Virus record (IMG/VR): IMGVR_UViG_3300010370_000038
Location: 876 to 64,875 of that record
Reading direction: 5' to 3' (one strand)
DNA length: 64,000 nucleotides
Origin: a virus
Taxonomy: Duplodnaviria > Caudoviricetes
Shown: in pieces, positions 24,030 through 55,000 of the stretch
How positions within the stretch are numbered: the stretch's first letter is position 1
How the letters are laid out: each line of letters begins with the position of its first letter
The notes under the pieces: model-generated
The model's database searches: none
Told to the model about the DNA's origin: nothing
Seen by the model: only the letters and a program-made list of their open reading frames with translations
Translations under genes and position numbers: made by a program

Positions 24030-24038
24030 GTATAACAA

Positions 24039-34800: not shown

Positions 34801-37800
34801 GGTCTGATGATGATTATAGTTATGGTGATACATTAGAAAATGGAATCATTTACTTCCCACGAATTGTTAATACTTCAACAATTCAATTACACTTAACTGA
34901 AACTGATGCAGTAAATGGTATTAATACAGTTGGTATTACAACTCTAAACAATCTCGGTATCCATAAATTTAGATCATTTGATTTCAAGAATAAAATTCAG
35001 ACTATTTCTGTAGTAACTGCTGGTGAGGGATATACTAGAAGGACTTATAATATTAAGTCAAACATCGGCATTAACACATCAATCGATGCGTTTTATGTAC
35101 CAAACCATGGATATAAGGACGATGAAGTTGTAGTTTATCAGGGAACAGATCCTATTAGAGAATTAACTTCAAATTCTCAATATAGAATCATCAAACTAAG
35201 TGCTGATGAATTTAGATTGGCGAATTCATCAATTGATGTATTAAGAAATAGGTATATCAACTTCAGTAATACTGGAAGTGGTATTCACACCGTAAAATAT
35301 CCAGATATAACAGCAAAGATTGTTGCATCTGTTGGTGGAACTACAATTTCAATTGATACCGAACCAGATTTTAGAGGAGAAATTATAAGCACTTATCTTT
35401 CCGAAACAGGAAGTAATTATGGTTCAAATGTATTAAATTTTGAAAAATCACCAACAGTAACCGTTATTAGTGGTAGAGGAGCACAATTCCAACCATTTGT
35501 CAGCAACGGAGTCATAACAGGTGTTCAAATTATTGGTGCTGGTGAAGAATATACATCTGCACCAGATTTAGTTGTCAATGGAGAAGGAACTGGGGCACAA
35601 TTAAAAGCAAAAATTACAAATAAAAAAGTTACGTCAGTAGAAGTCATATCTGGTGGACTTGGATATAATCCAAAAACCACAACTATTAGTGTAACATCTA
35701 TTGGTCGTGGTGCAATTATTGAAGCCTCAATAAGAAAATTAACCGTCAACTTGAGAAATAAGTACTCAAGCGATGATTTCCTCAATCCAAATACAAATTA
35801 TCCATTGCAATATGGTACTCTATCTTATTCTCAACAATTCCAAGATGCTTTTGGAGATAGTCTAGCAACTAGATCCCCTATTATTGGATGGGCATATGAT
35901 GGAAACCCAATTTTTGGTCCATTTGGCACAAGAAATCCAAAAGAAAATACAGGTATTACAACATATATTCGTTCTGGATATGAGTTGAGACAGAATGAAG
36001 TTGAGAATAGACCGTCAACATCTTTATTCCCAGCTGGATTCTTTGTAGAAGATTATAAATTTGTAGGCAATGGTGATCTCGATGAGTACAATGGAAGGTT
36101 CTTTATCTCCGATGATTTCCCACAAGGAATCTATGGATATTGCGCTACATTAGAAATTAACCCAGGAACTGGTTTGCCAAGACCAGCATTCCCATATTAT
36201 ATCGGAAATTCTTATATAAGTCCAAAGGCTTCTCAAGTAATTTCTCAAGATACTGATTTAAACACTTTAGATTTAAATAGAAATACATATCCATACAAAT
36301 TAAAGAGTCCAACTGCATCTTACGATTTTATTATTGAGTCTGATGAATTAGTTGGTCAGGAGGGAGTTGTTGATTCCATCATCACTTCTTCTGTTGAAAA
36401 ATTAAATATTATCGAATCTGGAGACTTATATAAAGTAAATGACAAGATTGTTTTTGATGAAGAAGGAACAAATGGTCAGGGAATAAATGCAGTAGTTTCT
36501 TTTGTCAAGGGAAAGGATGTAAATTCAATTCAAAGTACAAATGTTCAGTTTAATGACGTAACTTTCATTAAAACGAGTGATACTCAAATAACTGGCATTA
36601 TCGAACCAAACCATCAATTCAATAATAATGAAGTTATTGAAATATTTGATCTAAACACTGATGTAAAAGGTTTGTCTGGATTCCATGTAGTTGGAGTTGC
36701 AACAGAAAGAGCGATCATATTGGATCCAATGCAAGGTGGAGGACCCGTAGGATTGGTCACTGATGTTATTGTCAGTAGAATTCCAACAAATGTAAGTGGT
36801 GGAAGTAGCATTAGGATGAGCAATGGAGAAGTTTGCAAAATTCTTAATGTTATTAAAAGAGGAAATATTCTAAGACTAGAAAGAAGTGGAATTGCAACAT
36901 TCCAAGAGGCAGACACTATTACTTATTTGCAAGATAAATTTATAATCGAAAGTGATGCCCCACAGTTTGAATCCGAATATTTCCCTAAAGAATACTTCAA
37001 TCCAAAAACAGCAGTTGGTGTTGGTACTACTGTAGGCAATTACAATTCTCTAGAATATTATGAAAATAGGGTTCAGAAGACCAGGGTAATAAATCACCAG
37101 GAAATTTTTGTAGACAAGCACCCATTCTTTGATGGTCAAAAAGCTTTATTTGTAAAACCAGCAGGTTCATTGTCTGTTGCAATTGCAACTGCAATTGGAG
37201 TTGGAACAACAGCTATTTTAGTTAATGATAGCATCCCAAGATCTGGAACATCTCAAGAAGTTTGGATTGTAAATAAATCAATCAATAGCATTGGAATTAA
37301 GACAGAAAGAAATGGCGCACCAGTCTTCTTCACATCAAATGGATCGGACTTTAGCGATTACTATATTCAGGGAATAGGAACGGCTGTACGTGGATCAGTA
37401 AAACAACCAACAACAACAGTAACCACATCTGAAGCACATGGATTGCAAGTTGGAGATAAGGTTAGTTTTAATATTTTAGCAAATAATACAGTTGGAATTG
37501 GTACAAGCACTACAGTAAGAGTTGAATTGAATAGTGCTGGTCTATTAGTAGTAGATTCTCAGGGTATATCCTCTGCTGGCATAAACACTGTTACAAACAG
37601 AATTACAGTTCCAGGTAACAATTTTAGGACAGGAGATAGGATTTTCTATGAACCAAGATGCCCAGAAGTAATAGGTGGTCTTGGAACTGGAAGATATTTC
37701 GTTTATAAAGATACTCCAGATGAGTTTAGACTATGTGAAACATATGAAGATGTCTTTGCAGATGTTCCTGTAGTAGTCTCATTAACAAGTATTGGTGGAA

Positions 37801-40800
37801 CAGATCATAATTTTGCTCTGATTAATCCAAAATTAGAAGTAGCAAGTAGATCATCTCTCAATTTTGACTTGCAAAGTTACAGTCTAAATGGATATGGATT
37901 TAAAATTTATTACGATAGGGGTTATAAGAGCATATTTGTTGGGACGGGTAAGAGCACGACAGCGGAAGTTGGAGATCCATTAGACGTTGAAGGTAGACCA
38001 TCTGGAATTGGTGCTACTTATACGAAAGTTAAGGTAGATAATAATACCTTCTGCCCACCAGTTCTTTATTATAATCTCACAAAAAATGGTTTCCCAATAG
38101 ATCCAGATAAAGACGTTAAGGAATTTGGAACAATCAAGTATGTAAATAGCGCATATACTGGAGAATTTGAAATTACTAGTATTGGTTCGTCTCTTGCTGG
38201 AGTTGGAACAACCGCATTTAGTTTTGCAATAGCAAGAACTCCAGAAAAAGTTTCATATGCAGCAACTGAAGCAAGAGCATTCTACTCAACAGCATCATTG
38301 GGTGTTGAAGGTCCAATTGATAAGGTACAATTAGTTTCTGGTGGAGAATTCTATTCTCGTCTACCAAGATTCGTAAAAGTCGAATCCGAAAGAGGAAATA
38401 ATGCTACTATCAAACCAGAATCAAAGAAAATTGGAAAAATTAATTCCATATCATTGATCAATGAAGGATTCAATTATTCTTCAGATCAATCATTAAGACC
38501 TATTGTTGATATTCCGAATGTTGCAGATATTACTTCATTCAATACAATCGATAATATCGAAATAACCGCAAATGGTAGAAATTATATTTCTGCACCAAAA
38601 TTAGCATTGGTCGATAGATTTAGTGGAATTGCTGTTCCAAATGCTAATATTTTTGCGGAAATTAGTAGGGATTCTGGTTCTGTAACTAAAGTTGGAATTG
38701 ATAGACCACCTACTGGATTAAAAAATAGAGAATATAAGGTATATCCAACAAATAATACAAATGGTATTGTAATTGTTTCCACACAGTCAAATCCAACCAG
38801 AACTGGTATTGTAACTTTTACAATTGCAACTCCAGTATTAGGATTTACTGCACAACCATTCAAGGTCGGTGATATGGTTTGGATTGAGGGATTTGAAACA
38901 GATGCTGACGCAGATGGTTATAACTCAACCGATCATAAGTATAATTATTTTAAAATTGACAATATCGTTACTCAAAATCCATTTGTATTTGAAGTTGATT
39001 ATTCCAACTATACTCTAAATGTTGGTCTCGGCGTTAGTGATACTGGTAGTTTCCCAAGAGTTATTAAGAAGTCAGATCTTGCCGATTTCAATGTAACATT
39101 GAAGCAATCGACATTTGAAAAAAATGAAAAATTAGTTGTAAACTCAGTGCTTACTGATCTTCAAGTAATTTCTTTTGATAAGGTTGCAGGTAATATTAAG
39201 TACATTGGTCTATATCAATTACAAGTTGGCGATAATATAGCAGGTTCAAAGAGTGGATCAAGAGCTACAGTTCAAGATATTATTAGTTTCTCTGGAGTTT
39301 ATAGTGTAAAAGGAGAAAGTGAAAAAACATTAGAGGGCGTAGGTGGTTCTGGTAAACTAAATTCCAGTTTCCAGGTTCTTGAAGACAACAACTATTATCA
39401 AAATCTATCATATACACTTAAGTCGGAAGTTGCTTATGACGATTGCATTGATGCTGTCAATAATACAGTACACCCAACTGGTCTTAAAAATTTCGTTGAT
39501 AATCAAATTGTTTCGTCTATTCCAAGAGTTGGTATTCAAACTGCAACTACAACTTCATTAACAACTGTCGATCTTGTAGAAAATGTTAGGGTTGATGATG
39601 TTTATAATTATGATCTTGCAAGAGATCTTGATGTTAAGATTAGAAATAATCAATCTATAAGTAATAAGATTGAATTGCAGAATGCAAAACTATCTGATTA
39701 CATCGAATCCAAGACAAATAGAGTTTTACCAGTCGATGATATTTCTTCACAATTTAGTAACCTAAGTAATCCAAATACACTGGATTTATTTGAAAACATT
39801 TACAGGTATCCATTCAATTATACTTCAAATAGATTCTTAGTTCAGATTACTACTGAAGACTATAAGAAAGTACAAGTTTCTGAAATTACGATTCTTCAGG
39901 ATGGTTCAAATACCTACTATACGGAACCAACATTTAAAAAATTACACAATACTCCACAAGAAATTGGTACTCTTGAGGCAGATTTAGATGAAGAAAACTC
40001 TAATGTTAGAGTAAGATTCTATCCAACAGATCCTTATAACACCAATTATAATATTAAAATTATCAACAACTTCTATGATACTGTACCAACTATTACTGGA
40101 ATAGGTACAACTCAATTTGGATTTGCTGCTCTAATGGGAGCCGATGCCCAAATTGGAACAATGACATCAAAATCATTTGTTTCTGTTGCTGCAACAAATT
40201 ACAACTACTTACATGCATATGTTGAGGCAGAAACATTATCAGTAGGACAAAAAGAAACACTTTTTGCTGAAGTTGTTGCTATTCATGACACTAGTGATAG
40301 TTACATTGGTGAATATAATATCATTTCCTCTGATGGTTCGTATGGTGGAACAAATGCTGGAACCTTTGGAACCTTTGGATCTACTTATGATCCGATTAAT
40401 AATAAGTTTAGCATTGACTTTTACAATAATAGTACCAAAGATATTGTACAATTAAAATCAAGAATTATCGGATTTGGCAAAACTGAAGGAACCACAAACA
40501 GAGATTATAGATTCCTAGCTAGTGGAATGATCCCAGGCAATGAAAGATCAGCAAGATACTATACTGAATATCAAACTGTTGGTGTTGGTTCAACTGCAAA
40601 TTTTGCTGGAATCACAAGTGCAAACCAATCTGTAAACCAATGTACGATGATTGTTGGTTATGGAAGGACCTTCTCTTGCTACCAGTACTTATTCCTCAAT
40701 GATTATTTCTCTGGAAGTCTATATTTCTCAGAATATCCAGTATTATCTGTAGGAAACACTAGTGGTCTGGGGACAGTTTACGCGGATTATGATGCTAGAG

Positions 40801-43800
40801 GAAGAGGTGTATTAATCTTTACGCCCGACCCATCAATTACTGAAAAGATGTACATGAGAACCTTTAATGAGGTCATGTATCTTGAATTGGAACAAAATAA
40901 TGTAAATCCACTACAATATGGAGTTGCAATTGAAGAGGTCTTCAACACAAAATATACTGCACTAAACTTAAGAAATATCTTCGAATTCCCAATGGATTGG
41001 AATGGATATCCAATCTATACCAAAACATTTAACCCAGCAATCCCAGGTCAGTTCAACCCAGCAACTGGCGTATTCAATATCAAAAATCACTTCTTTACTA
41101 CTGGTCAACCATTAGTTTATACTCCAGGTGGAAGTTTTGTTGGACTAGCAACAACTGCTATTTCTATGAATAGTGGTAGTTTTATGCCAGGAATTGTTTA
41201 TGCTATCAAAGACAACGAAGATAATTTTAGAGTCGGTTTAACTACTGCTGATGCACTTGCTGGAATTGGCACAACATTTGCAGATGTTGGTTCTGGCAAC
41301 GTTCATAAATTTGATACACGAGGAAAATTAGAGAGATCCTTGATCGCTATTGATGGTATTGTACAAAAACCACTAACTTGGGCTCCAATTACTAGAACTC
41401 TTGAGCATAACATAGTATCTGCTGGAGGAACTTTAGGATTGGGTAAAACCGACATATATGCATCAATATCTGGTATTTCTTCAATAGTCCTTGGAGATTT
41501 GTTCCAGATTGAAGATGAATTAGTAATAGTAGATTCCGTTGGTGTTGGAGTTAGTTTATTTGCGATAGATCCAAGTGGTATTGGAACATATAATTTAATT
41601 AAAATTCAAAGAGGGGCAGTTGGAACTGCAGCATCTTTCCATGCAAATGGAACCTTAATGCAAAAATATACTGGTTCCTACAATATCGTAGATAGTAAAA
41701 TCTTCTTTACTGGAGCGCCAAATGGTGGTAAGTCGTCCGATGAAGCTATCAATACTGGTATCCCAGAGAAAGGATCCAGCTTTAGTGGAAGAGTTTTCTT
41801 AAGAAAAGATTACTCGACCAATAAGATTTTTGATGACATCTCTGGTCAGTTTACTGGTATTGCAAGAACCTTTACACTGAAGTCTGAAGGTCAAGATATA
41901 ACTGGAATTGGAAGTGAAGGTGGTTTTGGTATATTCTTTGTCAATAACATGTTCCAAAAACCACAAACTCTCAATAATGTAAATGCCAACTTGTTCATTA
42001 GAGAATCTGGTGGTCAAAGTAATTTGACATTTACAGGAACTTTGAATGAGACTGGAGATGTTGTAACATCTTTTGTTGATATTAACCAAAACGGTGTTCC
42101 TAGAGGTGGTATAGTCGTAACCCTTGGTTCCAGTGAAGGACAAGGATTTGCGGAATTGGGCAACCCATCAATTGGTGCCTCAGTAAACCATGCTGGAGAA
42201 ATTTGGAAGGTATTGACATCTCCAACGACTCAAAATATGGTGGAGATTACAGATTTTATCTATGACCATACTACTGGATTATCTACTGTAACAACAAGCA
42301 CTCCACATGGATTTATCGATGGTACTTACATTGATATGGTAGGCATTGGATTTACTTGCAATCCAACAAAATCTGGTATTACCACTGGAGTATTCCCATA
42401 TACCAGAGGTCAAAAGAAAAATATTGCAAATATCATTTATGATAATACCACTGGAATGGCAACTGTAACGACAGTAGAACCATTTGGAATCTTAAATGTT
42501 GGCGAAGAAGTATTTTTCAATGGAATTGGATTTACTTGCATTGGGCAAAAGTATGCTCAGATTAGCCAGACTGCTGGATTGACAACAACAATATTCCCAA
42601 CCAGAACTGGTATTGCAAAAACAATTTCAGACTTTAAGTATCACAATTCTACTGGTATTGGAACAATCACATTATCAACACCACACAGATATCAGGCAGG
42701 AGATAGAATTTATCTCGAAGATCTCGAACTATCATGTGGATATGGAATTGGAATCACCGATGTTCTTTATAATGCATCTACTGGACTAACAACTGTTACA
42801 ACAGCATCGGCGCATGGTTTCTCTAAAGGAGACAAAGTTAGATTATCTGGTATTGCATTTACTTGCCCAGGATATGGTACAACTATTGCAATTTCTGACT
42901 TTGAATATGACAATTCAACTGGAATTAGTACTATTACACTTTCTGCTGAGCATGGAGTAAAACCAGGGCAACAAATTAAACTAGTTGGTCTTGGATTTAC
43001 TTGTGATTCTGCATATATTGGCGTAACTACTACTATCTTCCCAGATGGCACACAAGGAGACGTATTCCCAGTAATTAAGGTACTGTCGGCAACTAAGATT
43101 TTAACCAATGTTGGAGTTTCTACCATCGTTCACCATTATGATGCTGGCGGTCATATGCAGGTTGGTATTACATCAACCATATTCCCATCAGGTAATAATG
43201 GTTTTGAGTTTATTATTACTAGTGTTCCAACCACTAAGAAGTTTAGAGTAAATGTAGGAACCTCCACAATTCCACATACTTATGTAAGTGGTGGTACAGC
43301 AATTCTTGGTCTAACCACAACAACCTTCCCACACCCAACTGGAATCGCCCACAGCCTGTCTGATTTTGTTTATGACAATACGACTGGTATTGCGACAATT
43401 ACGGTTGCTAGAGGCGGTCACACGTACTCATTAGGAGATAGAATTAATTTTGCTGGTATTGGATTTACTTGCGACGGTGGTTCTGGTTTAACAACCTCGG
43501 TATTCCCAAGTCCTTTAGGTAGACCATATAATATCACTGGGTTTACCTATGATAATTCAACTGGTCTAGCGACAGTAACCACTTCAGTTGCTCACGACTT
43601 TAAAGTAACCGATAGCTTAAACTTTGAAGGAATTAATTTCAGTTGCCCTGGTGGATCTGGAATTACAACCACAGTTTTCCCAGATACAGTCAACTTCCCA
43701 ACTAGATCATACAGAGTACTTGCAATCCAAGATTCTACCAAGATTCAAGTTGACGTTGGAGTATCGACAATTATTCACACATATGTCGCTGGTGGCACCG

Positions 43801-46800
43801 TTTCTGCAATTAAGAAGACTGGACCATATGAGGTAAACAGAATTATTGGCATCAGTACTTTCTGCTGCAATGTCGGAATCTCAACGTATAAGCATTATTA
43901 TACACCTGCAAATGGCGTTGGAGAAGTTACAAAGTTAAACTTTGGTGGTGTTGATGATACTTATGTTGTTACTGGAATAGTAAGTGCAAAATCATTTACT
44001 ATTGATGCTGGAATTTCCACATATACCCACACATATGCTGGCGGTGGAATCTCCAGAAAGAAATTAAGGACTCAATCTTTTATTGTAGACACTGTTGTAA
44101 ACGATAGAACTTTTAGAACCAATGTTGGACCTTCTACATATCGCCATGTATATGATCCACAACCAATTAAAGTTCCAGGTACTATCTTAATAAGTAATTT
44201 CCAATATAACAATCAAACTGGATTAGCAACTATCACAGCACCTTTCCATGGAATTAGAAAAGGTGGTGAACTCATTAGAATTTCTGGTCTCGCATTGAGT
44301 TGCCCAGGTGGATCTGGAATCACAACAACAATCTTCCCATCTGCTGATGGATTAAGCAGAAATGTAACTAACGCAATTTATGACAATACTGTAGGAATTC
44401 TTACTGTGACAACTGCAGTTGGTCATGGTATTACCTTTGTTGGTCAATTTGTTAAGTTAGAAGATCTTGGATTTGATTGTGCAGGTGGAAATACTAGTGT
44501 AACTGGAGCAACATATTTTAGTGACCTTCCTATTACTGGATTTGATTACACAGAAACAACAGGTGTTGCTACAGTAACTGCTGTAGGTCATGGATTGACA
44601 ACAGGAGAAAATGTAAGACTATCTGGTATTGCATTTACATGCCCTGGTGGATCTGGAATCACAACTACCATCTTCCCAGATGGTACACAAGGATTCTTCT
44701 TTGGAGTAAATGATGTTATTGATCCAGACACATTTGTTACTAACGTAGGAATTTCAACCATTGCTCACACTTATGTAAGTGGAGGAATTGTAAGAACTGG
44801 AGTTACTACTGATAAGTTCCCATCTCCTCAGGGAGCATTCATTAAGATCTTTGATTTTGAATATAATAACCAAACTGGTCTAGCAACAGTAACCACTAAC
44901 GGTTATCATCAATTTGGATCTGGTCAGGTAATCAAATTCCACGATATTCATTTCACATGCCCAGGTGGTTCTGGAATCACTACAACTGTATTCCCCGATA
45001 ATAACCAAACCACATTTGTAGTAAAAGAAAGAATTAATAGACATCAATTTACAGTTAATGTTGGAATTTCTACAATTCCACATACCTATGATAAGGGTGG
45101 TAGAGTTTCTCCAGTTAGATATACTGGTCCGTATGAGGTAATTTCAATTAATAGCAATACCGAGTATGAAGTCAATGTTGGAAGATCTGCCATTGCACAC
45201 ACATATACGAGTGGCGGAACATCAAAACCTCAACATTATACTGGTCCTTATGAACTTCTAAGTGTAGTCGATTCAAATACTCTAAAAGTAAGAATTGGTA
45301 TTTCTACATATGTACACACATATGTAAGTGGAGGTAAGGTTACTAGGTTACGTTCTGGTATTGTTGAGAAAAAACTAAATCCAGGTCCATTCACAGTTGA
45401 TAGTGTAATAGATTCTACCAAGTTTACTGTTGATGTAGGTATTTGCACTTTCCCACACTTCTATCATTCTGGTGGTAAGGTGGGAGAATTGCTATCATTC
45501 TTCCCAGGAAGTGGATATTATGGAAATACTGTTCCTGTCACTTTAGTATCTAAGAATGGCATTGGTTCTGGAGCAGCTATAAACGCAACTGTTGGTTATG
45601 GTGGATCGTTAGTTTTCACTCTCAATAATGTAGGATCTGGTTATACGGATTCGCCAATTATCAGATTGCCAGGTCCATCATATGATGATGTACCCGTTAA
45701 GGGTCTCTTTAGACTTGGTATTGGAGAAACTACACAAACTGGATTTGGTCTATCAGTAACACTAAATGTTGGTGGTATATCAACCTCTGGTATAACTTCA
45801 AACTTGAGTGGCGTTAAGAACTTTAGCATTACTAATCCAGGTTATGGTTTTGCTGTTGGAGATAAATTAACTACCGTTGGATTAGTCACTGCGGCACAGA
45901 TACTATCTGGAAAGACAGTAGGTTATCGCACAGACACCGTACCATTTGAACTTCAGGTCTTGGAAACTTACAGTGATACTTTCTATGCTTGGCAATTTGG
46001 TCAGATTGATTATATTGATGATGTAACTGAGTTGCAAAACGGAGAATCAAAGAGATTCCCACTAAGGCAAAATGGTCAGTTATTGAGTTTTGAAAAAGCA
46101 GATGGATCTGCAATTTCATTCCCAGCTCTTTTATTAATCTTCGTAAATGGAGTTTTACAACTTCCAAATACAAACTATATTTTTGAAGGTGGAACTTCAT
46201 TTGAATTTACATCAGCACCACAACCAGATGATCAAATTGCAATTTACTTCTATAGAGGAAGTAACGATGATGTTATCAATAAAGAAGTATTTGAAACTAT
46301 TAAGGTCGGAGATGAAGTAATAATTCTCAGAAAAGCGTTTGATCCCGACACAGTAGATCAAGACCCAAGAGTTGTTAATACAATTTTGGCATCAGATACA
46401 GTTGCTACAAATCTATACACTCTTCAAGGAATTAATGATACTACATATAGACCTTTAGTGTGGAGAAAGCAGAAAAATGACAGAATTGTTGATGGTAGGG
46501 TTATTTCAAAGTCTAGAGAAACTTTAGAACCACAAATTTATCCAACAGCAAGAGTTATTGGTTCAATCGGTTCTACTTCTACATCTATCTTTGTAGATTC
46601 TGTTGGTATATTCAATTGGGAAGAACTTACACCAACAACCGATTTTGACATCGTACTCACCCAATACAACAATCCAGTAGTAGGTGTTTTATCAGTTGGA
46701 ATAGCAACTACTGGGGCAAACGCTGGTTCAATTTCAACAATTACAGTCCTTGAAGGTGGAAGTGGTTATTCTGGAATAGTAACTATCTCAATATCAAACC

Positions 46801-47498
46801 CAAGCAACATTAGAGTTGGTTTTGGCACAACAGCATTGGCTACTGCAATTATTGGTGCTGGTGGATCAATTATTGGAGCAAATATATTAAATGCTGGAAG
46901 TGGTTATTCGACAACTAGAAATGCATATGCACTTGCACCATATCCTCAGATTAAAGTTTCTGAGGAAATACTTGCCGTAACCGTTACAAATGGTTACGAT
47001 GGGGCATTGATTGGTATTGATACTGGTGTTGGAATCGGAACAAATTTAGCACTCAAATTTACGTTAGATCTTCCAGATAGCCCAGAAAATACATTAAGAG
47101 ATGGGTTTAGAATCTGGATTAATGGAACAAACGTTGGTTCTGGTGTAACATCAATTGATAATGGACCAAATGAGATAATTGGAATTGGCACTAACAAACT
47201 AGATAATATCTACAAAGTTCACTTTGTACAATATGATGGTGGATCTGGAGTTGTAACCGTAACTTGCAACGTCAAAGATGATACGAATATCAGCGGTCTT
47301 GCTACAGTTGGAACAGCATTCACTTCTGTTGGAAGATATAGTTGGGGAATTTTGACTGGATTTACTAGATCTCAAGATCCTATTTCTATCTCCGCAGATG
47401 GATTTACTCCAACTTCTGGTCTCTCAACATATCCATTAGTACAGAGAAGAGGATATGGTCTGAGAAACACGGGTGCTATACGAAGAGAACCAATATGA
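31857..47498 (+). CDS. gp7: Baseplate wedge initiator gp7 (giant, 5213 aa, many inserted domains)
   Basis: Between gp6 and gp8; QLPRFV...FLRQYY, FYQTKGT.ESFRILF, DNNYYQNLSY...VHPTG; YHYH-like SPIIGWAYDGNPI. Confidence 0.9.
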   Translation: MAVKRVKIKDIVESQLPRFVLEDSPKVAEFLRQYYISQEFQGGSVDLAENLDQYIKLDHLVASVINPAITLEFPISASDDQILLSSVEGLPDSYGLVKIDDEIITYTGVDGNTLTGCVRGFSGIVKYRDENNPEELIFESTNAASHTSGLVTFDTTTYSPGDYYYQDATITTMYGIIRVRPSTGTVKTVRYKVKNIQSSFYQLSGPDIDDTQLNQTVVVNQGDIVQFEVEASGHPLYIQSTGDGYDTNAVLTVGVQNAGASVVTSVQNLSVEFLKEFFIKLKTLYAPGFEDRKLYEGVNIKNFLANVRSFYQTKGTRESFRILFSVLYGKSVQVVDLEDFVLKSSTSNYLRRATVVAQVISGDPLLLTGQTLYQDDDPTNPEVIAASGPISEVEIFSRQGEVFYKIPLFIGYNEQSLVTGRFYVPGYTKNTLEASANARVINVDSTVGFSKSGKLIIDGLNGTTIVTYTDKNLTQFLGCSGLTTNLPVGYALRSNVTAYGFEEGDSSRRVDLRITGVLGEFESIGDNYYLDVGNEIYIKSIGEDIGVPADPTQEPTYKQKIFNSWLYNVATRYQVKEVSGSTFTLFDNITKNYLKTGDQVHVLPRDSSTILTTAEVTVLNSNTIQLSNTTGVVANGKYDIRRIIERASSTNNLIEFGNETITSDIQNTYVTKDKTFESMYVACQGLPSFDINVDRVRVEFNGLDIASGAIQQLVSFVNNLPFVSGDEVIYEALNGAPSIGGLESGKRYFIWINPSANNQLKLTEARSFIDANKFITLTPAAGTHRLTLAAHYDKLIQPQKILRQFPLFPNVKSGLAQTTTYGATGMLINGVEIINYKSSDFIAYGPLESLSLISGGTDYDIINPPNVNISNTGAGGTEARVDPVITGSLKSIYLPNKDVYDIDQIFGLNIEGGNGQGASASVTLSKNFTTVEFNAKSIFSNGGVDVAANTITFTSSHNFSTGQKIVYNANGNNPLGIAKTLGSDDDYSYGDTLENGIIYFPRIVNTSTIQLHLTETDAVNGINTVGITTLNNLGIHKFRSFDFKNKIQTISVVTAGEGYTRRTYNIKSNIGINTSIDAFYVPNHGYKDDEVVVYQGTDPIRELTSNSQYRIIKLSADEFRLANSSIDVLRNRYINFSNTGSGIHTVKYPDITAKIVASVGGTTISIDTEPDFRGEIISTYLSETGSNYGSNVLNFEKSPTVTVISGRGAQFQPFVSNGVITGVQIIGAGEEYTSAPDLVVNGEGTGAQLKAKITNKKVTSVEVISGGLGYNPKTTTISVTSIGRGAIIEASIRKLTVNLRNKYSSDDFLNPNTNYPLQYGTLSYSQQFQDAFGDSLATRSPIIGWAYDGNPIFGPFGTRNPKENTGITTYIRSGYELRQNEVENRPSTSLFPAGFFVEDYKFVGNGDLDEYNGRFFISDDFPQGIYGYCATLEINPGTGLPRPAFPYYIGNSYISPKASQVISQDTDLNTLDLNRNTYPYKLKSPTASYDFIIESDELVGQEGVVDSIITSSVEKLNIIESGDLYKVNDKIVFDEEGTNGQGINAVVSFVKGKDVNSIQSTNVQFNDVTFIKTSDTQITGIIEPNHQFNNNEVIEIFDLNTDVKGLSGFHVVGVATERAIILDPMQGGGPVGLVTDVIVSRIPTNVSGGSSIRMSNGEVCKILNVIKRGNILRLERSGIATFQEADTITYLQDKFIIESDAPQFESEYFPKEYFNPKTAVGVGTTVGNYNSLEYYENRVQKTRVINHQEIFVDKHPFFDGQKALFVKPAGSLSVAIATAIGVGTTAILVNDSIPRSGTSQEVWIVNKSINSIGIKTERNGAPVFFTSNGSDFSDYYIQGIGTAVRGSVKQPTTTVTTSEAHGLQVGDKVSFNILANNTVGIGTSTTVRVELNSAGLLVVDSQGISSAGINTVTNRITVPGNNFRTGDRIFYEPRCPEVIGGLGTGRYFVYKDTPDEFRLCETYEDVFADVPVVVSLTSIGGTDHNFALINPKLEVASRSSLNFDLQSYSLNGYGFKIYYDRGYKSIFVGTGKSTTAEVGDPLDVEGRPSGIGATYTKVKVDNNTFCPPVLYYNLTKNGFPIDPDKDVKEFGTIKYVNSAYTGEFEITSIGSSLAGVGTTAFSFAIARTPEKVSYAATEARAFYSTASLGVEGPIDKVQLVSGGEFYSRLPRFVKVESERGNNATIKPESKKIGKINSISLINEGFNYSSDQSLRPIVDIPNVADITSFNTIDNIEITANGRNYISAPKLALVDRFSGIAVPNANIFAEISRDSGSVTKVGIDRPPTGLKNREYKVYPTNNTNGIVIVSTQSNPTRTGIVTFTIATPVLGFTAQPFKVGDMVWIEGFETDADADGYNSTDHKYNYFKIDNIVTQNPFVFEVDYSNYTLNVGLGVSDTGSFPRVIKKSDLADFNVTLKQSTFEKNEKLVVNSVLTDLQVISFDKVAGNIKYIGLYQLQVGDNIAGSKSGSRATVQDIISFSGVYSVKGESEKTLEGVGGSGKLNSSFQVLEDNNYYQNLSYTLKSEVAYDDCIDAVNNTVHPTGLKNFVDNQIVSSIPRVGIQTATTTSLTTVDLVENVRVDDVYNYDLARDLDVKIRNNQSISNKIELQNAKLSDYIESKTNRVLPVDDISSQFSNLSNPNTLDLFENIYRYPFNYTSNRFLVQITTEDYKKVQVSEITILQDGSNTYYTEPTFKKLHNTPQEIGTLEADLDEENSNVRVRFYPTDPYNTNYNIKIINNFYDTVPTITGIGTTQFGFAALMGADAQIGTMTSKSFVSVAATNYNYLHAYVEAETLSVGQKETLFAEVVAIHDTSDSYIGEYNIISSDGSYGGTNAGTFGTFGSTYDPINNKFSIDFYNNSTKDIVQLKSRIIGFGKTEGTTNRDYRFLASGMIPGNERSARYYTEYQTVGVGSTANFAGITSANQSVNQCTMIVGYGRTFSCYQYLFLNDYFSGSLYFSEYPVLSVGNTSGLGTVYADYDARGRGVLIFTPDPSITEKMYMRTFNEVMYLELEQNNVNPLQYGVAIEEVFNTKYTALNLRNIFEFPMDWNGYPIYTKTFNPAIPGQFNPATGVFNIKNHFFTTGQPLVYTPGGSFVGLATTAISMNSGSFMPGIVYAIKDNEDNFRVGLTTADALAGIGTTFADVGSGNVHKFDTRGKLERSLIAIDGIVQKPLTWAPITRTLEHNIVSAGGTLGLGKTDIYASISGISSIVLGDLFQIEDELVIVDSVGVGVSLFAIDPSGIGTYNLIKIQRGAVGTAASFHANGTLMQKYTGSYNIVDSKIFFTGAPNGGKSSDEAINTGIPEKGSSFSGRVFLRKDYSTNKIFDDISGQFTGIARTFTLKSEGQDITGIGSEGGFGIFFVNNMFQKPQTLNNVNANLFIRESGGQSNLTFTGTLNETGDVVTSFVDINQNGVPRGGIVVTLGSSEGQGFAELGNPSIGASVNHAGEIWKVLTSPTTQNMVEITDFIYDHTTGLSTVTTSTPHGFIDGTYIDMVGIGFTCNPTKSGITTGVFPYTRGQKKNIANIIYDNTTGMATVTTVEPFGILNVGEEVFFNGIGFTCIGQKYAQISQTAGLTTTIFPTRTGIAKTISDFKYHNSTGIGTITLSTPHRYQAGDRIYLEDLELSCGYGIGITDVLYNASTGLTTVTTASAHGFSKGDKVRLSGIAFTCPGYGTTIAISDFEYDNSTGISTITLSAEHGVKPGQQIKLVGLGFTCDSAYIGVTTTIFPDGTQGDVFPVIKVLSATKILTNVGVSTIVHHYDAGGHMQVGITSTIFPSGNNGFEFIITSVPTTKKFRVNVGTSTIPHTYVSGGTAILGLTTTTFPHPTGIAHSLSDFVYDNTTGIATITVARGGHTYSLGDRINFAGIGFTCDGGSGLTTSVFPSPLGRPYNITGFTYDNSTGLATVTTSVAHDFKVTDSLNFEGINFSCPGGSGITTTVFPDTVNFPTRSYRVLAIQDSTKIQVDVGVSTIIHTYVAGGTVSAIKKTGPYEVNRIIGISTFCCNVGISTYKHYYTPANGVGEVTKLNFGGVDDTYVVTGIVSAKSFTIDAGISTYTHTYAGGGISRKKLRTQSFIVDTVVNDRTFRTNVGPSTYRHVYDPQPIKVPGTILISNFQYNNQTGLATITAPFHGIRKGGELIRISGLALSCPGGSGITTTIFPSADGLSRNVTNAIYDNTVGILTVTTAVGHGITFVGQFVKLEDLGFDCAGGNTSVTGATYFSDLPITGFDYTETTGVATVTAVGHGLTTGENVRLSGIAFTCPGGSGITTTIFPDGTQGFFFGVNDVIDPDTFVTNVGISTIAHTYVSGGIVRTGVTTDKFPSPQGAFIKIFDFEYNNQTGLATVTTNGYHQFGSGQVIKFHDIHFTCPGGSGITTTVFPDNNQTTFVVKERINRHQFTVNVGISTIPHTYDKGGRVSPVRYTGPYEVISINSNTEYEVNVGRSAIAHTYTSGGTSKPQHYTGPYELLSVVDSNTLKVRIGISTYVHTYVSGGKVTRLRSGIVEKKLNPGPFTVDSVIDSTKFTVDVGICTFPHFYHSGGKVGELLSFFPGSGYYGNTVPVTLVSKNGIGSGAAINATVGYGGSLVFTLNNVGSGYTDSPIIRLPGPSYDDVPVKGLFRLGIGETTQTGFGLSVTLNVGGISTSGITSNLSGVKNFSITNPGYGFAVGDKLTTVGLVTAAQILSGKTVGYRTDTVPFELQVLETYSDTFYAWQFGQIDYIDDVTELQNGESKRFPLRQNGQLLSFEKADGSAISFPALLLIFVNGVLQLPNTNYIFEGGTSFEFTSAPQPDDQIAIYFYRGSNDDVINKEVFETIKVGDEVIILRKAFDPDTVDQDPRVVNTILASDTVATNLYTLQGINDTTYRPLVWRKQKNDRIVDGRVISKSRETLEPQIYPTARVIGSIGSTSTSIFVDSVGIFNWEELTPTTDFDIVLTQYNNPVVGVLSVGIATTGANAGSISTITVLEGGSGYSGIVTISISNPSNIRVGFGTTALATAIIGAGGSIIGANILNAGSGYSTTRNAYALAPYPQIKVSEEILAVTVTNGYDGALIGIDTGVGIGTNLALKFTLDLPDSPENTLRDGFRIWINGTNVGSGVTSIDNGPNEIIGIGTNKLDNIYKVHFVQYDGGSGVVTVTCNVKDDTNISGLATVGTAFTSVGRYSWGILTGFTRSQDPISISADGFTPTSGLSTYPLVQRRGYGLRNTGAIRREPI

Positions 47499-47537: not shown

Positions 47538-49094
47538 ATGCCAGCTATAGTATCAGATCAGTTTAGAATTCTGAACGCAAAAAACTTTGTCGATGATATT
47601 GAAGATTCCAACAACTCATATTATGTAATGTTGGGTCTGTCGAATCCTACTGCGGTTGGGTTCGGCAGAAGTGCCAATTGGGATGATTTGACCCCATATC
47701 CAATTGATGATTTGAATAATTTAAATCACGTCAAAGATACCTTTTTATTCGGTAAGAAGATTACTTCAGATAATGTTAGAAGATTGATTAGAAGAGTAGA
47801 TTGGACACAGGGGACAATCTATGAAATGTATAGACATGATTATAACATCATCAATCCATCTCCAGTTACGAACTCGACTAGGTTATATGATGCAAATTAT
47901 TATGTAATGAATTCAAATTATCAAGTCTATATTTGTCTACAAAATGGATCTTCAGGTATCAATACGAGTGGTAATCAATCATTAGATGAACCAACTTTTA
48001 CTGACCTAGAACCTTCTAGAGCAGGTAATAGCGGAGATGGTTATGTGTGGAAATACATGTATACAGTTTCTCCTGGAGATATTATCAAGTTTGATACCCT
48101 TGAGTATATACCAGTTCCAAATAATTGGGAAACGGTTAGTGGGCAAGTTGCAGCAGTTAGAGAAAACGGAAATTCGGAACTAAATTTGAATCAAATAAAA
48201 ACAATTTATATAGAAAATCAAGGTTCTGGTTATGGTATAGGTCAAAATCAAGCGGTAGATATTTTGGGAGATGGAACAGGAGCTAAAGCTGTTCTTAACG
48301 TTGATAGTTCAGGAAAAATAACAGGAGCAACAGTTTCCTCTGGTGGAAAAGGATATACATATGGAATGGTAGATCTTTCAACCATAAATACAGGATCTAT
48401 CACTGACAGGGCATTTCTAATTCCAATTATTCCGCCATCAAAGGGTCATGGATATGATGTTTACAAAGAATTGGGTGCAGATAAAGTATTGATCTATGCT
48501 CGTTTTGATGATATTGCTGATTTTCCAACTAACTCAAAATTCTCTCAAGTTGGAATTCTAAAAAACCCAGTTTCTACTGGATCAACTGCAGTAATTAGTT
48601 CCGACTCATTTACAGCATGTAATGCTTTGGTGCTAGATACAATTTCTGATATTACGCAGATTACGGTTGGAGCAAAACTTAGACAAACTATAGGTGCTGG
48701 TCAAACTGCATTTGGTTATGTGACATCTTTTGATAAGGACACAAAAGTAGTTAGATACTATCAAGATAGATCACTATACTTTAACCAAAGCACCGCAAAT
48801 CAAGAAGATGACCCATTTGCTGCACCAGAAAGTTTTATTAAGTATGACTTTACGGGTGCAGTAGCCAATGTAACTATTGGATCTGCAAGTTGCACAATCA
48901 ACACTGGATTTACTGGAATTACTACGACTACAACTTCTGGTGCTGTAGTTGACTTAGGCATTAACTTCACAGGAGGCGTAGCTGTTCCAGAAATAGATAA
49001 GATGAGTGGTGATCTCATATATATTGATAACAGGGCTACCGTCACCCGAAACTTGAGACAAAGAGAAGACGTAAAAATCGTACTAGAGTTTTAA
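47538..49094 (+). CDS. gp8: Baseplate wedge subunit gp8
   Basis: MPAIVSDQFRILNA, RRVDW..G..Y.MY, VYICL.N, DGYVWKYMY, C-terminal SGDLIYIDNR...EDVKIVLEF. Confidence 0.95.
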   Translation: MPAIVSDQFRILNAKNFVDDIEDSNNSYYVMLGLSNPTAVGFGRSANWDDLTPYPIDDLNNLNHVKDTFLFGKKITSDNVRRLIRRVDWTQGTIYEMYRHDYNIINPSPVTNSTRLYDANYYVMNSNYQVYICLQNGSSGINTSGNQSLDEPTFTDLEPSRAGNSGDGYVWKYMYTVSPGDIIKFDTLEYIPVPNNWETVSGQVAAVRENGNSELNLNQIKTIYIENQGSGYGIGQNQAVDILGDGTGAKAVLNVDSSGKITGATVSSGGKGYTYGMVDLSTINTGSITDRAFLIPIIPPSKGHGYDVYKELGADKVLIYARFDDIADFPTNSKFSQVGILKNPVSTGSTAVISSDSFTACNALVLDTISDITQITVGAKLRQTIGAGQTAFGYVTSFDKDTKVVRYYQDRSLYFNQSTANQEDDPFAAPESFIKYDFTGAVANVTIGSASCTINTGFTGITTTTTSGAVVDLGINFTGGVAVPEIDKMSGDLIYIDNRATVTRNLRQREDVKIVLEF

Positions 49095-49098: not shown

Positions 49099-52000
49099 AT
49101 GCCACAAAGAACTAACCTGAACATCAATCCATATTATGATGACTATGACCAAAATAGTAATTACTACAGAGTTCTATTTAAGCCTGGATTCCCAGTACAG
49201 GCGAGAGAATTAACTACTTCTCAATCGATTCTGCAGAATCAAGTTGAAAAATTTGCACGTCACTTCTTTAAAGATGGGTCGGTAGTTATTCCTGGTGGAG
49301 TAAGTTACGACTTAGATTATCCTGCGGTACAGATCGAATCAACTTTTCTGGGATTAGATGTTTCTGCGTATATTAAAAACTTTATTGGCAAAGAAATTAG
49401 AGGTCAAAGTTCTGGAGTAGAAGGACGAGTAGTAAATGTTCTTTCTGAGTCGGAATCGGATAGTGGAAATATCGTTCTCTATGTAAAATATACAACTGGT
49501 GCAAATGATAACTCAGTTGCTGTATTTTCTGATGGAGAGACTTTAATTGCTCTAGATACAATAACATATGGCAATACTACTATTGCCAGTGGCAATACAT
49601 TTGCGAATGTTATTCCCGATAATGCTACTGCTATTGGATCTGCAGCACACGTTGATAGAGGTACTTTCTTCTTCAGAGGGTTCTTTGTTGATGTAGAAAA
49701 GCAAAGTATCGTTCTTGATCAATTTGGAGATAAACCATCATATAGAGTTGGTTTACAAATTAGTGAAGAGATTATCAATGCTAAGCAAGATAATACTTTA
49801 TATGATAATGCAAAGGGATTTACGAATTATGCAGCTCCTGGAGCAGATAGATTTAAGATTGCAACAAAGTTAGTCAAAAAACCACTAACTGATTTAAATG
49901 ACGCAAACTTTGTAGAGTTGCTGAGACTCAATCTAGGTGTTCTTCAGATTGTACCAAATAAACCAGATTATGCTGTAGTTAAGGACTATATTGCACAAAG
50001 AGACTTTGAAAAAACAGGAAACTTCTTTGTAGAACCATTTAGTATCACTTTCCACGAAAGTTTAAACAATAGAAGAGGAAATGGTGGTCTATTCTATGAA
50101 AATCAAGTAACAGATCAAGGAAATGTCCCATCTGATGATTTACTTGCAATTTCTGTTGGTTCTGGAAAAGCATATGTAAAAGGATACGATATTGATAGAC
50201 CAATTGCTAGTATTCTTGATGTAGAAAAACCCAGAACTACAAGAAGAGTAGAGAATGTAAATGTCTCATTTACTATTGGAAATAGTGTTCGTTTAACGAA
50301 CGTAACTGGACATCCAGCAATTAAGCATGAGTTGGAATTATACAAGCAGAGATTGGGTGCTAATGGAACTACATTAGTAGGTCCAAAAATTGGAGATGCC
50401 AGGGTATATTCATTCCAACTAACATCAGGGGAGTATAAAGATGATACTACCCAATTTACAATGTATGTTTATGACTTGAATTTATATTCGTTCTTACATT
50501 TAGCAAACCCACTGAGCGCAACAGAACTTCCAGCAGGTTCTTATATTAAAGGTCAATCAAGTGGAGCAACTGGATATGTAACTGCTGCAGGTAGTGGATC
50601 TGCAAAAATTTATGTTAGAGATGTACTTGGAACGTTTATTCAAGGTGAAGATATTTGGATTAATGATAATGTAGAAAATAAAAGAAGAATTCTAGATACT
50701 AGAACTTTCAGTTCTAAAGATGTAAAATCCGTATATCAACAAGCATCTGCAAAAGGTCTTGCAGCTGATTTCTATGCTGATCTGGCATTAGATACTGTCC
50801 CAATTCCAGGATATAAAGATTCTGATGTATTTACATTAACAAACGCTGGACAGCTTACCATTGGCGATAAAGCAATTACTGGTATTACTACAGATACTCT
50901 GTATAGTATTAAGCAGGTTGGATTCCAAACCAGCACAATCTTTAGAGTAAAAGATATAGCAAAAACTGGGAAGGCAGTTACACTTGAAGCAGTAACCCCA
51001 GTTAATGGAATTAGTGGTGGAGGTCTTCCAGCAGCAACACTCAATACCACAATTGTAGCATTATCTCCTAGTTTGGCAAATACTTCCGATGATGGATTAT
51101 TTGCTGTACTACCTACAAATAATATTGCTTCGGTAACACTAGAAGAGTCTACTTTAGAATTTGTTGATCAAATTACAGCATTGACAACAAACGGAAGTGG
51201 TGAAATGACTATAACAAACACTACTGGTATTCAAGGTGCGTTGTTTGAAGATTTTGATGAAGATAGGTATTCTGTTGTCTATGACGATGGTTCTATCGCA
51301 ACGTTAACAGCAGAAAAATTTGAATTAAATAGCGGAACAAATACAGTTTTAATCAAAGGTCTAAAGGCAAACGAAACAAATGTAGTGGCAAATGTCACTA
51401 TGAAGAAGCCTAAGATGAAGGCTAAGCAAAAAGTTCTTAATAGATCTAAGGTTGTAAACATTGTAAAATCCAGTAAGAAAAATTCTGGTATTACTACAGG
51501 AACTAGTTTACTTGATGGATTACAATATAGTTCTTTCTATGCAACAAGGGTACAAGATAGTGAGATATGCATAAATTATCCAGATGTAGTTGAGGTTCTT
51601 GCAGTACATGAATCTTGGGATATCAATGCCCCAACTTTTGATAAGATTAACTTTAACTCGATTGAGAACATCCAACAAAGTGCAATCATTGGAGAAAATG
51701 TTGTTGGAGATGACAGCAAAGCAATTGCTAGAGTTGTTGGAAAGCCAGCTGCTGCTCAAATTGAGTTTATTTATTTAACTGATGCAAGATTTGCATTGGG
51801 TGAGAATGTACAGTTCCAAGAAAGTAAAATAATCGCAACGATTGATAGCATTGTAAATGGAAACTATAAAGATGTAACACATAGGTATTCATTAAATCAA
51901 CATCAAGAAAAGTCGTTCTACAACTATTCATCCATTCAGAGAACAGCAGTTAGTGGAAATCCGCCAACAAGACAATTAAAAGTTGTTTTTGACTATTATA

Positions 52001-55000
52001 CAATTCCAGCTGGAGATGATGGTGATATCATTACAGTAAACAGTTATCCACCAGAATCATACAGAAACAAGATTCCACATATTACGTCAAGGGTAAGTGA
52101 TAGAGATACAAACTGGGCAACTGATGTTCTTGACTTCAGACCATATGTAGATGTTTATAATCCAGATACAGCTTCGTATCCACCATATGATTTTGATAGT
52201 AGAAACTTTGACGCATCAGATAAACCAAAGATTCTGATGGCTCCTGGAGAAAGTCAAATTGTATCATTTGAATATTATTTGGCAAGAAAAGATAAACTTT
52301 TCTTAAATAAAAATGGAGAACTATTTGTTGTAAAGGGTCAACCTGGGGTTGGAAGTCCAGATGACTTGAACGAAGATAATATGCTCCTTGGTACTATTTC
52401 GTACCCAGCTTTCTGCGATAATGCAAATATGGTCACTATTGACTTGGAAAATCCAAGAAGATATACCTTTGCTGATCTCGTAAAAATGGAGCAGAGGATT
52501 GAGAGAATTGAAAAAGCAGTTTCCCTTTCCATGCTTGAAGAACAAACCAAGAACGTCGATGTTAGAGACGCCAATGGAAAATCAAGATTTAAGAATGGAT
52601 TTTTTGCTGACAATTTCCAAAGTAATGATCAAATTGATACAAACCATCCAGATAATAAGTGCGAACAGTCAACAGAAGACGAAGGTGTTGTAACTCCAGT
52701 TCCTTCCAATGGAAGTTTGAAGTCTTTGATTGTTACAGAAGCTACAACAAATGCCCAAACATTTGATAGTACAGTTAATTATACTCTATTAGATAACAAT
52801 ATTCAAAAATCTGGAGATCTTCTAACATTAAAGTATGTTGAAGAAGAATGGGTAAAACAGTTAGCTGCCACTGGAGTAAGCAATATTAACCCATTTAACG
52901 TTATTACATGGGCTGTTGCAATCACACTAACTCCAGATATTGATAGTTGGACTAGAAAAATTTATACTGAAAGAACTATCGAAATTAAAGGTCTCCAAAA
53001 ACAAGTTGCTGTTGTTACTTGGAGATGGAGATGGCACCGTAGAGGATACTGGTGGGGTTGGTGGGGTCATTATTGGCACTACTGGGCATACTGGGGTGGC
53101 TGGGCATGGGGTCACTGGGGAGGACACTGGTACGGTCACTGGGGCTGGGGCTGGTGGGGCTGGTGGGGCTACCGCTGGGGCTGGCACTATTATGGATGGT
53201 GGGGCTGGGGCTGGTGGCTCGCTCGTGGTTGGTGGTGGTGGGCACCATCTGTTTACTACGTTACTGTCGATCTTCCAACACCAGTACCTGCTGATACCAT
53301 CGAAATGACATCGAGGGTTGATGAGGATTACATGAGGTCGAGAAACGTATTGATGACAGCGGTAAGCTGTAAACCTAATACTAGATACTATCATTTCTTC
53401 GACGGAACTAATAACCTGGATATCATACCAAAACTTCTTGAAATCAAGGATGTTACTGGAGCATTCCAAGTTGGAGAAACTGTCAAGGGTACTAGTGGCA
53501 GCGCATCAATCACGTTTAGAGTCTGCACACCAAATCATAAGCAAGGACCATTTAATAACCCAGATAGAGCTTTCCAAACTAATCCATATAATAGTGGTTC
53601 TACAATTCCTTCAACATATTCAACTTCATCAACAATCTTGAATGTTGACGTTGCTGCTATGTCGGAAGAAGCGCAAGGTGCTTATTCTGGATATGTAGTT
53701 AATGATATGCTATTAGTTGGTCAAACTTCTGGTGCTACTGCAAAAGTTGCTAACATTCGTTTCATTTCTGATAACTTTGGTGATATATACGGATGCTTCT
53801 TCATCAGAGATCCTTTGGCAGATCCAGCACCACCAAATAGATTTAAGACTGGAACAAAACAATTTGTCTTGAATACTGATATCAATGACACAAAACCAAT
53901 TCCAGGAACAACTAAGATTTCTAGAGGCGCAGCTGATTACAAATCAACTGGTGTCGTTGAAACATGGAGAACGACTAAGTATAAGGTCTACTATCACAGA
54001 GACCCTCTTGCACAATCGTTTACTACTGATGCTAGTGGTGTTTATATCACAAGTATTGATGTTTGGTTCTACCAAAAGGACAATAAGTTGCCAGTCTTCT
54101 GCGAAATTAGACAGATGCAACTTGGAACTCCTACCAGAAATGTTCTTGAATATAGTGAGGTTAAGTTAGATCCAGACCAAGTTAAATTGGTTCCTGATGA
54201 TGGGGCTTCGGCAGGAGATGATACATACAAGACTACATTTACATTTAAATCTCCTGTATTCTGTTCTCCAAACGAAGAATTCTGTTTCGTTCTTCTATCT
54301 GAATCCGACCAATATGAAGTATTCCTCGCTAGAATGGGAGATAAGACACTTAATTACCAAGCATTTGGTTTAGGTGCCAACTCTCAACATAGTAAACAGT
54401 GGGGTGCTGGTTCTCTATTCAAGTCGCAGAACGGTTCTATCTGGACTGCAACTCAGGAAGAAGACTTAACATTCAGAATCAAGAGAGCTAAGTTTACTTC
54501 TAAGTCTGGTACTGTTTATCTACAGAATCCTGATCTTGATGTAAGTAACAACTATACCAGAAAACTTCGTGCTGATGCTTTCCAAGTCATTTCTAGATCG
54601 GTAACTATTGGTATCACAACAGTAAATCTTGGAACTCCACTAGCAGGTATCCTGACAACAGGCAGAAAGATTGGAGAAACAACAGCTGCAGAAAATCCAT
54701 CATCTACAGGAAAATCTTATATCTATGGCAATATCGAAAATGTTGGTGGTCCAATCGACATAACTTACGGATCTCTAGCTGGAGTTTCTACAGTTGCTAT
54801 TGGAGGAACTGGTTATATTGATGGACAATACACCAATGTAGAATTGTATGGCGTAAGTAGTAACGGAGATGGTGCTAGAGCAAACATTTTTGTTAAGGGT
54901 GGAAGTGTAACTGGTACTGGTGTAACTATAATTACAGCAGGACATGGTTATAAAGTTGGAGATATTTTGGGCATCACAACTTCCGATATTGGAGGTGCTG

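Follow-up and report, generated by a model that had tools for sequence, protein, structure and literature searches.

How can a protein carry two kinds of half-domain, in equal numbers, along a chain in which they do not alternate? The question is raised by a stretch of viral DNA of 64,000 nucleotides (hereafter the window; positions 876 to 64,875 of the IMG/VR record IMGVR_UViG_3300010370_000038, Caudoviricetes), in which a giant open reading frame (ORF) in the slot of the baseplate gene gp7 contains a block of opening halves (A) and closing halves (B). A first-pass annotation, made from the letters alone, had proposed that whole barrels resembling the FCCH domain of E1 enzymes were inserted recursively into each other's loops to yield a tree of 11 domains. 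We give a probability of about 0.8 to such an architecture, in which amino acids (aa) 3464-4540 of the protein form a tree of eleven E1-FCCH-like barrels, each six-stranded and of about 90 residues. The fold of the unit, a nesting grammar that parses without error and a relative (P0002) differing by a single unit all speak for the proposal; the long-range pairs of halves we infer.

In the layout that we propose, the A half of each barrel would provide strands 1-3 and end in an invariant Cys, a linker of the form G.TT..FP would follow, and the B half, with an invariant His, would provide strands 4-6. Complete copies would be placed in the loop between the halves, at one of two sites (I or II), the chain opening barrels outward and closing them in reverse order. 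The whole 1077-residue module would hang from one point of a conserved wedge protein, entering and leaving there because the first and last strands of the root barrel belong to one domain.

Half-domains, linkers and nesting order

Separate hidden Markov models (HMMs) of the A and B halves, seeded with regular expressions and iterated on the window protein itself, recovered exactly 11 full-length halves of each kind, A at 48.5-64.4 bits and B at 39.5-52.8 bits, none of them outside aa 3464-4540. The block delimited by the first-pass annotation, 42231-45488, corresponds to aa 3459-4544 of the giant ORF. Along the chain, the halves read AAAAA BB AA BBBB AAA B A BBBB, with depths of 5, 3, 5, 1, 4, 3, 4 and 0; the HMM hits and a stack parse thus reproduce the bracket-balanced series of 11 A and 11 B exactly as it had first been read. 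The linker, searched over the whole giant ORF with the expression G[ILV]T[TS]x.FP, gave 11 matches in the entire protein, every one inside the block. A stack parser using the grammar D -> A D* L D* B accepted all 33 symbols with zero errors and assigned exactly one linker to each domain. The resulting tree, D1[D2[D3[D4[D5], D6[D7]]], D8[D9[D10, D11]]], has a depth of 5 and four leaves, and its root D1 runs from A1 to B11. The elements are given below in chain order, with HMM scores in bits for the halves; linkers come from the regular expression, and all partners from the parse.

31857-47498, +, giant ORF P0001 (5213 aa), gp7 slot, baseplate wedge protein; from the ORF list and translation, gp6-like and gp8-like neighbours, and PHROG 2885 before and after the repeat block
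42246-45476, +, nested module, aa 3464-4540, eleven predicted FCCH-like barrel domains in one rooted tree; from HMMs, linker expression and stack parse
42246-42359, +, A1, opening half of D1 (root), partner B11; 56.5
42375-42398, +, linker of D1
42423-42539, +, A2, opening half of D2, partner B6; 57.5
42576-42599, +, linker of D2
42624-42737, +, A3, opening half of D3, partner B5; 58.8
42753-42866, +, A4, opening half of D4, partner B2; 61.8, three strands in both AlphaFold2 models
42891-43004, +, A5, opening half of leaf D5, partner B1; 64.4, within the FCCH-matching barrel
43020-43043, +, linker of D5
43062-43151, +, B1, closing half of D5; 43.9, within the FCCH-matching barrel
43164-43187, +, linker of D4, displaced behind inserted D5
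43206-43295, +, B2, closing half of D4; 47.7, three strands in the AlphaFold2 models
43308-43331, +, linker of D3, displaced behind inserted D4
43356-43472, +, A6, opening half of D6, partner B4; 56.5
43485-43508, +, linker of D6
43533-43646, +, A7, opening half of leaf D7, partner B3; 58.9
43659-43682, +, linker of D7
43707-43796, +, B3, closing half of D7; 46.7
43824-43913, +, B4, closing half of D6; 50.4
43959-44048, +, B5, closing half of D3; 39.5
44076-44162, +, B6, closing half of D2; 42.6
44190-44303, +, A8, opening half of D8, partner B10; 48.5
44316-44339, +, linker of D8
44364-44480, +, A9, opening half of D9, partner B9; 52.8
44532-44642, +, A10, opening half of leaf D10, partner B7; 48.7, Pfam E1_FCCH 13.4 bits over the whole unit
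44655-44678, +, linker of D10
44697-44786, +, B7, closing half of D10; 47.4
44799-44822, +, linker of D9, displaced behind inserted D10
44847-44960, +, A11, opening half of leaf D11, partner B8; 60.0, Pfam E1_FCCH 17.7 bits over the whole unit
44973-44996, +, linker of D11
45012-45101, +, B8, closing half of D11; 51.3
45129-45218, +, B9, closing half of D9; 47.8
45246-45335, +, B10, closing half of D8; 48.0
45387-45476, +, B11, closing half of root D1, about 1000 residues past A1; 52.8, co-fold of A1 plus linker with B11 0.46, best control 0.01

Three of the insertions stand directly after the Cys (site I: D4 in D3, D5 in D4, D10 in D9) and seven after the linker (site II). At all three site I insertions the host linker follows the insert in the parse, which agrees with the earlier description of the linking motif as displaced behind an inner domain. 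The statement that every A half ends in Cys and every B half contains a His was equally exact for the window, the Cys ending 11/11 A halves and the histidine of an H.Y motif being present in 11/11 B halves. Two B halves have cysteines beyond the invariant one per domain: a Cys-Cys pair in B4 (43860-43868) and a Cys before the His in B11 (45444-45452). At site II insertions the spacer that precedes the host B half (e.g., 43797-43823, 45102-45128 and 45219-45245) ends in G-P (..K.TGP, ..RYTGP, ..HYTGP).

A random order of 11 A and 11 B would be balanced with a probability of 1/12, and under a naive null with three symbols a well-formed series has a probability of 8,414,640 / 1.365e14 = 6.2e-8. 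When the HMMs were run over the whole giant ORF, A-like matches outside the block were partial only, at aa 945-970 (21.2 bits) and aa 1851-1875 (24.3 bits), the others scoring 3.5 bits or less. The two partial matches (window 34689-34766 and 37407-37481) correspond to the middle of an A half (T.TT...H.....GD.V) and have neither the Cys end nor a B half; they may be either relics or a simpler motif that is related.

Fold of the unit and proposed pairing of separated halves

An AlphaFold2 model of aa 3631-3816 (A4 A5 L B1 L B2; model 1), built from 20 colinear rows from the window and from IMG/VR loci, reached a mean pLDDT (predicted local distance difference test) of 81.3 and contains 12 strands, three per half, as assigned by DSSP. 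When its inner unit A5+L+B1 (model residues 41-141) is superposed on residues 211-291 of Uba6, an FCCH domain, the Z-score is 10.0 and the root mean square deviation (rmsd) 2.1 A over 78 aligned residues. Taken together, the FCCH domains of Uba6 and Uba1 give Z 9-10 and rmsd 2.1-2.4 A over 76-79 aligned residues, and the mouse E1 FCCH alone (2v31) gives Z 8.4 over 78. The unit also matches barrels of the K1F and phi92 endosialidases (Z 8.2-9.0) and, at Z about 8, the outer domains of two tail-tube proteins, those of T1 and FCWL1. Foldseek also ranked E1 enzymes at the top (E 3.7e-4), together with the I-domain of the P22 coat protein (E 5e-4 to 1e-2). Because a contiguous A-L-B unit gives one six-stranded barrel that superposes on FCCH, A and B are, according to the model, the two halves of one barrel and not two domains.

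Sequence profiles agree with this in extent. The Pfam family E1_FCCH (PF16190) aligns over profile positions 2-65 of 70, spanning both halves, and a precomputed PF16190 hit is present in some relatives. Its gathering cut-off of 29.5 bits was not reached in the window, D10 scoring 13.4, D11 17.7 and the whole block 20.3 bits, with no hit for the two other leaves; a Pfam scan at the default threshold reported nothing for the repeat block. A PDB sequence search with the domain profile gave nothing significant, the best match being the P22 coat I-domain (E 0.084). The label E1 FCCH-like proposed by the first-pass annotation is thus sound for the fold but does not extend to membership in the Pfam family.

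For the nested copies, the bracket order suggests that each separated A half would pair with its partner B half. The connection between A, linker and B in a leaf is 19-20 residues long, and since leaves must close across it, the end of the next outer A half and the start of the following linker or B half would be brought together. In model 1, the outer halves A4 and B2 form three regular strands each. In a second AlphaFold2 model (model 2; 14 rows, mean pLDDT 80.3), to which A3 had been added without its partner as an orphan-half control, A3 forms two strands only and its third segment stays unpaired, whereas A4 and A5, modelled together with their partners, have the full three. The whole nest of 186 residues also superposes on BFVD models of two cyanophage proteins, with a TMq of 0.68 (over 186 columns) for one and 0.74 for the other, which is more than a single domain could give. 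For the most distant pair, co-folding of A1 plus its linker with B11, using our own alignments as input, gave an ipSAE of 0.46 (runs 0.45-0.48) versus 0.01 for the best of three controls, with at least 88% contact agreement between runs and a partner pLDDT of at least 70. The tool rates this as weak support: its mark is reached by 58/80 solved complexes and 2/110 mismatched pairs, values of 0.60 or less comprising only 7 of the 80 together with both mismatches.

Variation among relatives and alternative readings

A homologue search limited to proteins of 2867-9123 residues found 255 matches, 120 of which are listed and underlie all counts out of 120 given here. With the first HMMs and fixed thresholds, 51/120 were exactly balanced. 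Adding a model of a variant B half raised this to 53/120, P0088 changing from 16A/4B to 16A/16B, and limiting the parse to the repeat region raised it to 72/120; the difference between the numbers of A and B is 0 in 76, +/-1 in 28 and larger in 16 proteins, and 104/120 are balanced within one. A wider search without length limits matched the domain in only 370 of 1.84 billion clusters and added 144 new proteins, 54 of them balanced. Relatives share the bracket grammar with other branching patterns. A second cyanophage family, with a hypothetical protein from Synechococcus phage S-CAM7 among its members, reaches about 31 domains and a depth of 8. Short A-A spacers are without the linker motif in 746/772 cases and short B-B spacers carry it in 527/777, a distribution that fits the insertion model.

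In a close relative, P0002 (68% identical), the tree of the window recurs with a single complete A-L-B unit added behind the linker of D11, a predicted insertion site. The extra domain is followed by a G-P-ending spacer of the type described above. Both flanks of the module are kept in 83/120 homologues, with 388-2888 aa, or 4-27 domains, between them. A single attachment point would allow whole barrels to be gained or lost without moving the flanks, and fits this range. The flanks (window aa 3251-3455 and 4546-4850) are conserved too in proteins of 2900-3750 aa (P0088, P0096, P0100, P0105, P0106 and P0116-P0120), in which the module starts near residue 280; flanks and tree seem to move as a unit from one carrier protein to another. 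In P0003, the skeleton of the window is expanded to at least 27 domains within 7019 aa. A variant domain, seen in P0088, P0100 and P0003 and in no copy of the window block, has a linker like H.YPR and a B half without the H.Y histidine, the His having seemingly moved from the B half to the linker. It occurs in plain tandem arrays with a period of 85 residues and as extra leaves in P0003. Runs of A halves alone in some relatives had been considered as evidence against nesting; this was rejected, as a variant linker and a variant B half follow each A with the 85-residue period.

Several results weigh against a tree with strictly bracketed partners or are neutral towards it. Since any A half would probably co-fold with any B half, the co-fold is not specific for the pair. 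Orphan A3 kept pLDDT values of 87/90/93/78 per 10-residue block despite its absent partner, for which a low value had been expected. The corresponding values of the outer halves in model 1 (91/91/96/81 for A4 and 85/95/74/89 for B2) are therefore no evidence of pairing, and pLDDT was dropped for this purpose; only the strand count differs. A mirror-tree test, comparing the A and B similarity matrices under bracket pairing, gave r = -0.08 for the window protein, with 3286/5000 permutations as high. It was positive for P0034 (r = 0.47, 16/5000), P0036 (0.40, 71/5000), P0041 (0.70, 32/5000) and P0018 (0.21, 25/5000), and not significant in P0002, P0030 and P0044; the signal was judged too weak to be relied on. 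A coupling score trained on 407 contiguous domains (effective number of sequences, Neff, 158) and applied to 250 separated pairs placed the bracket partner first in 62-68/250 versus 43.1 expected (p = 0.17, 0.036 and 0.011 in three settings), with a mean percentile of 0.53-0.56, a weak excess drawn from cases that are related and not independent. Four-way mutual information in 255 distinct AABB nests was the same for the true and the crossed pairings, the top pairs being invariant columns (a pseudocount artefact). Lastly, 48/120 giant homologues are not exactly balanced under the HMMs used, so that the balanced nesting for which the first-pass annotation had looked to gp7 homologues holds exactly for 72 parses, within one for 104, and not throughout, and only 39 of the 95 proteins of at least 600 aa in the wider set are balanced (69 within one). 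The unbalanced giant homologues that were inspected had a divergent half just under the threshold or came from cut genes, an account that does not provably extend to every case; many proteins of the wider set are likewise cut or too divergent for the models, and plain A-B-A-B chains are also present among them.

These results bear differently on the alternatives. If the barrels form but neighbouring halves swap strands, the body would be interdigitated rather than a clean tree. The A-A spacers of the window, of just 5-8 residues, and the lack of a clear preference for the bracket partner in the covariation tests are in line with such swapping. The short leaf connection nevertheless forces the leaf pairs, and each closure joins the next outer ends; the parse with one linker per domain is exact and the AlphaFold2 nest has three regular strands in all four of its halves, which leaves strand swapping improbable. 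We regard as more improbable still that A and B are independent three-stranded modules, whose runs would stack in a sheet-like or fibrous manner and whose equal counts would come from duplication of mixed blocks. The confidently modelled orphan A3 and the unbalanced parses (48/120, and 56/95 in the wider set) could be read in this way, but a contiguous A-L-B unit is one FCCH-like barrel across both halves and the third A strand does not form without a partner. Moreover, no gross crossing of the order occurs, the window obeys the three-symbol grammar exactly, and what had looked like arrays of A alone proved to consist of whole domains whose B half is a variant one.

A last alternative, that the block is an artefact of assembly or a recent DNA repeat and encodes no real protein, deserves mention because metagenome misassembly may occur in repetitive regions. 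At the DNA level, however, identity between the copies and their reference copies is only 60-88%, which excludes a recent repeat or an assembly artefact as the source of the block; the frame is open across 5213 codons, the cluster of the window protein was found on 2 contigs, and the 68%-identical relative has the same order. We consider the chance of an artefact close to nil. The nested tree of barrels accordingly stays the reading that we prefer.

Carrier protein, possible role and known systems

The window is a structural module of a T4-like cyanophage. Its closest database neighbours are Synechococcus and Prochlorococcus phages; the 87 phage records matched are all below 60% identity, and matches at the DNA level cover short stretches only. 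The gene before the giant ORF has a Pfam Gp6-like match at 29963-31855 and the gene after it a Phage-Gp8 match at 47538-49094. PHROG 2885, annotated as "baseplate wedge subunit", matches the three parts of the giant ORF outside the module with 1350.7, 1188.8 and 449.5 bits and almost end-to-end coverage, and spends only positions 3329-3522 (about 190) at the site of the module. Given these neighbours and the PHROG match outside the block, gp7, the name used by the first-pass annotation, is a fair name for the gene slot. A Pfam scan of the giant ORF matched no T4 gp7 family. The window ORF resembles T4 gp7 in sitting between gp6-like and gp8-like genes, and a relative from S-SSM7 in BFVD carries the name "baseplate wedge initiator". 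T4 gp7 has about 1030 aa, and the window protein, with 5213 aa, is far longer.

Other features of the window can be mentioned briefly. A YHYH domain (PF14240, E 2.2e-22) lies within the giant ORF at 35856-36161 (aa 1334-1435) and is common to most gp7-type relatives. The giant ORF that follows (49099-56526, 2475 aa) contains DUF4815 (E 1.1e-62) and matches "phage cement" weakly. The G+C content is 0.53 at 24001-26000 and 0.45 at 10001-12000, versus 0.31-0.40 elsewhere, and long ORFs on both strands overlap at 10421-12677.

The barrel of endosialidases binds sialic acid. By analogy, the module would be an exposed, fast-evolving and variable decoration of the baseplate rim, because FCCH-like barrels occur in endosialidases and because FCCH domains are described as pointing outward from siphovirus tail tubes (PMC13576161). 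It would probably bind host surface sugars weakly and in a multivalent manner, or else act as a compact strut. Among the distinct halves compared, 97% of the 560 A halves keep a Cys at the end of strand 3 and 96% of the 529 B halves a His where strand 6 starts, a conservation of the presumptive ligand residues such as a metal site calls for; a second His is found in 83% of A halves. A shared Cys/His site in each barrel, whether for a metal or otherwise, is plausible. A wider picture, which we put forward tentatively and hold to be doubtful as a whole, is that of a self-similar "plug-in tree" in cyanophage virions, reaching about 31 copies and at least 8 levels in relatives and always joined to its carrier at one point, so that whole barrels could come and go with assembly left undisturbed; the tree would serve as a retunable multivalent binder of the host surface on the baseplate rim, each barrel bearing a putative metal or reactive Cys-His site used in binding or for stability in seawater.

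Such a module would offer a natural series for the question of how barrels fold whose halves lie up to a thousand residues apart, and shows recombination adding balanced units. Since the module belongs to a baseplate protein of abundant marine cyanophages, it is also a candidate site of host-recognition variation. Standard domain callers, which require contiguous matches, miss proteins of this kind, as illustrated by the silence of Pfam on the block at its default threshold.

Among known folds, the unit shares with E1 FCCH (PF16190) a six-stranded antiparallel barrel of about 80 residues, and differs from it by an identity of only 14-22% and by its own invariant Cys and His and its G.TT..FP linker. 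In addition, the known E1, tail-tube and endosialidase proteins carry the domain singly, not nested in itself. Likewise a small inserted beta-barrel, the I-domain of the P22 coat protein is matched by Foldseek and, weakly and without significance (E 0.084), by the sequence of the A half; superposition on full coat chains works poorly, however (rmsd 18-20 A), and the I-domain shows no nesting.

Nesting of one domain within another is usually one level deep. The closest known analogue of the gp7 module, which we treat as an analogue and not as a relative, is formed by the recursively inserted SBHM/HABAS domains of Si3 in the beta' subunit (RpoC2) of cyanobacterial RNA polymerase. Three publications describe for Si3 eight SBHMs, four of which (SBHM-2 to -5) are discontinuous and formed by distant parts of the chain (PMC10895346), "HABAS domains ... 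inserted into other HABAS domains" (PMC11515920), and a six-level recursive architecture of eight domains, which a 2026 survey names as the most complex of 48,551 insertion events (PMC13114784). The sequence-level mark of this architecture, domain halves parted by complete copies without crossing, is found here in the error-free parse of 33 elements. In both systems, with gp7 taken at the level of its bracket order, a small domain of beta-barrel type is inserted into its own copies and discontinuous domains are closed in reverse order, a host may carry more than one insert, and each module has as a whole been inserted into a conserved protein at a single point. In our literature searches, which covered article texts, no account of FCCH-like domains nested in one another came up for phages or virus particles, and no SBHM or RNA polymerase chain stood among the best structural matches listed by Foldseek and superposition, of which FCCH barrels were the best. 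The structure of Si3 has been solved experimentally, whereas the gp7 module is known from sequence and prediction. With a depth of 5, the copy in the window remains below the six levels of Si3, but relatives are deeper: copy number at the gp7 site varies from 4 to 27, and balanced parses of the second cyanophage family give about 31 domains at a depth of 8. The unit is an SBHM in a polymerase in the one case and an FCCH-like six-stranded barrel in a baseplate protein of the virion in the other. The gp7 module appears, in sum, to have the same architecture as Si3, built from another fold, in a virion protein and with a variable number of copies.

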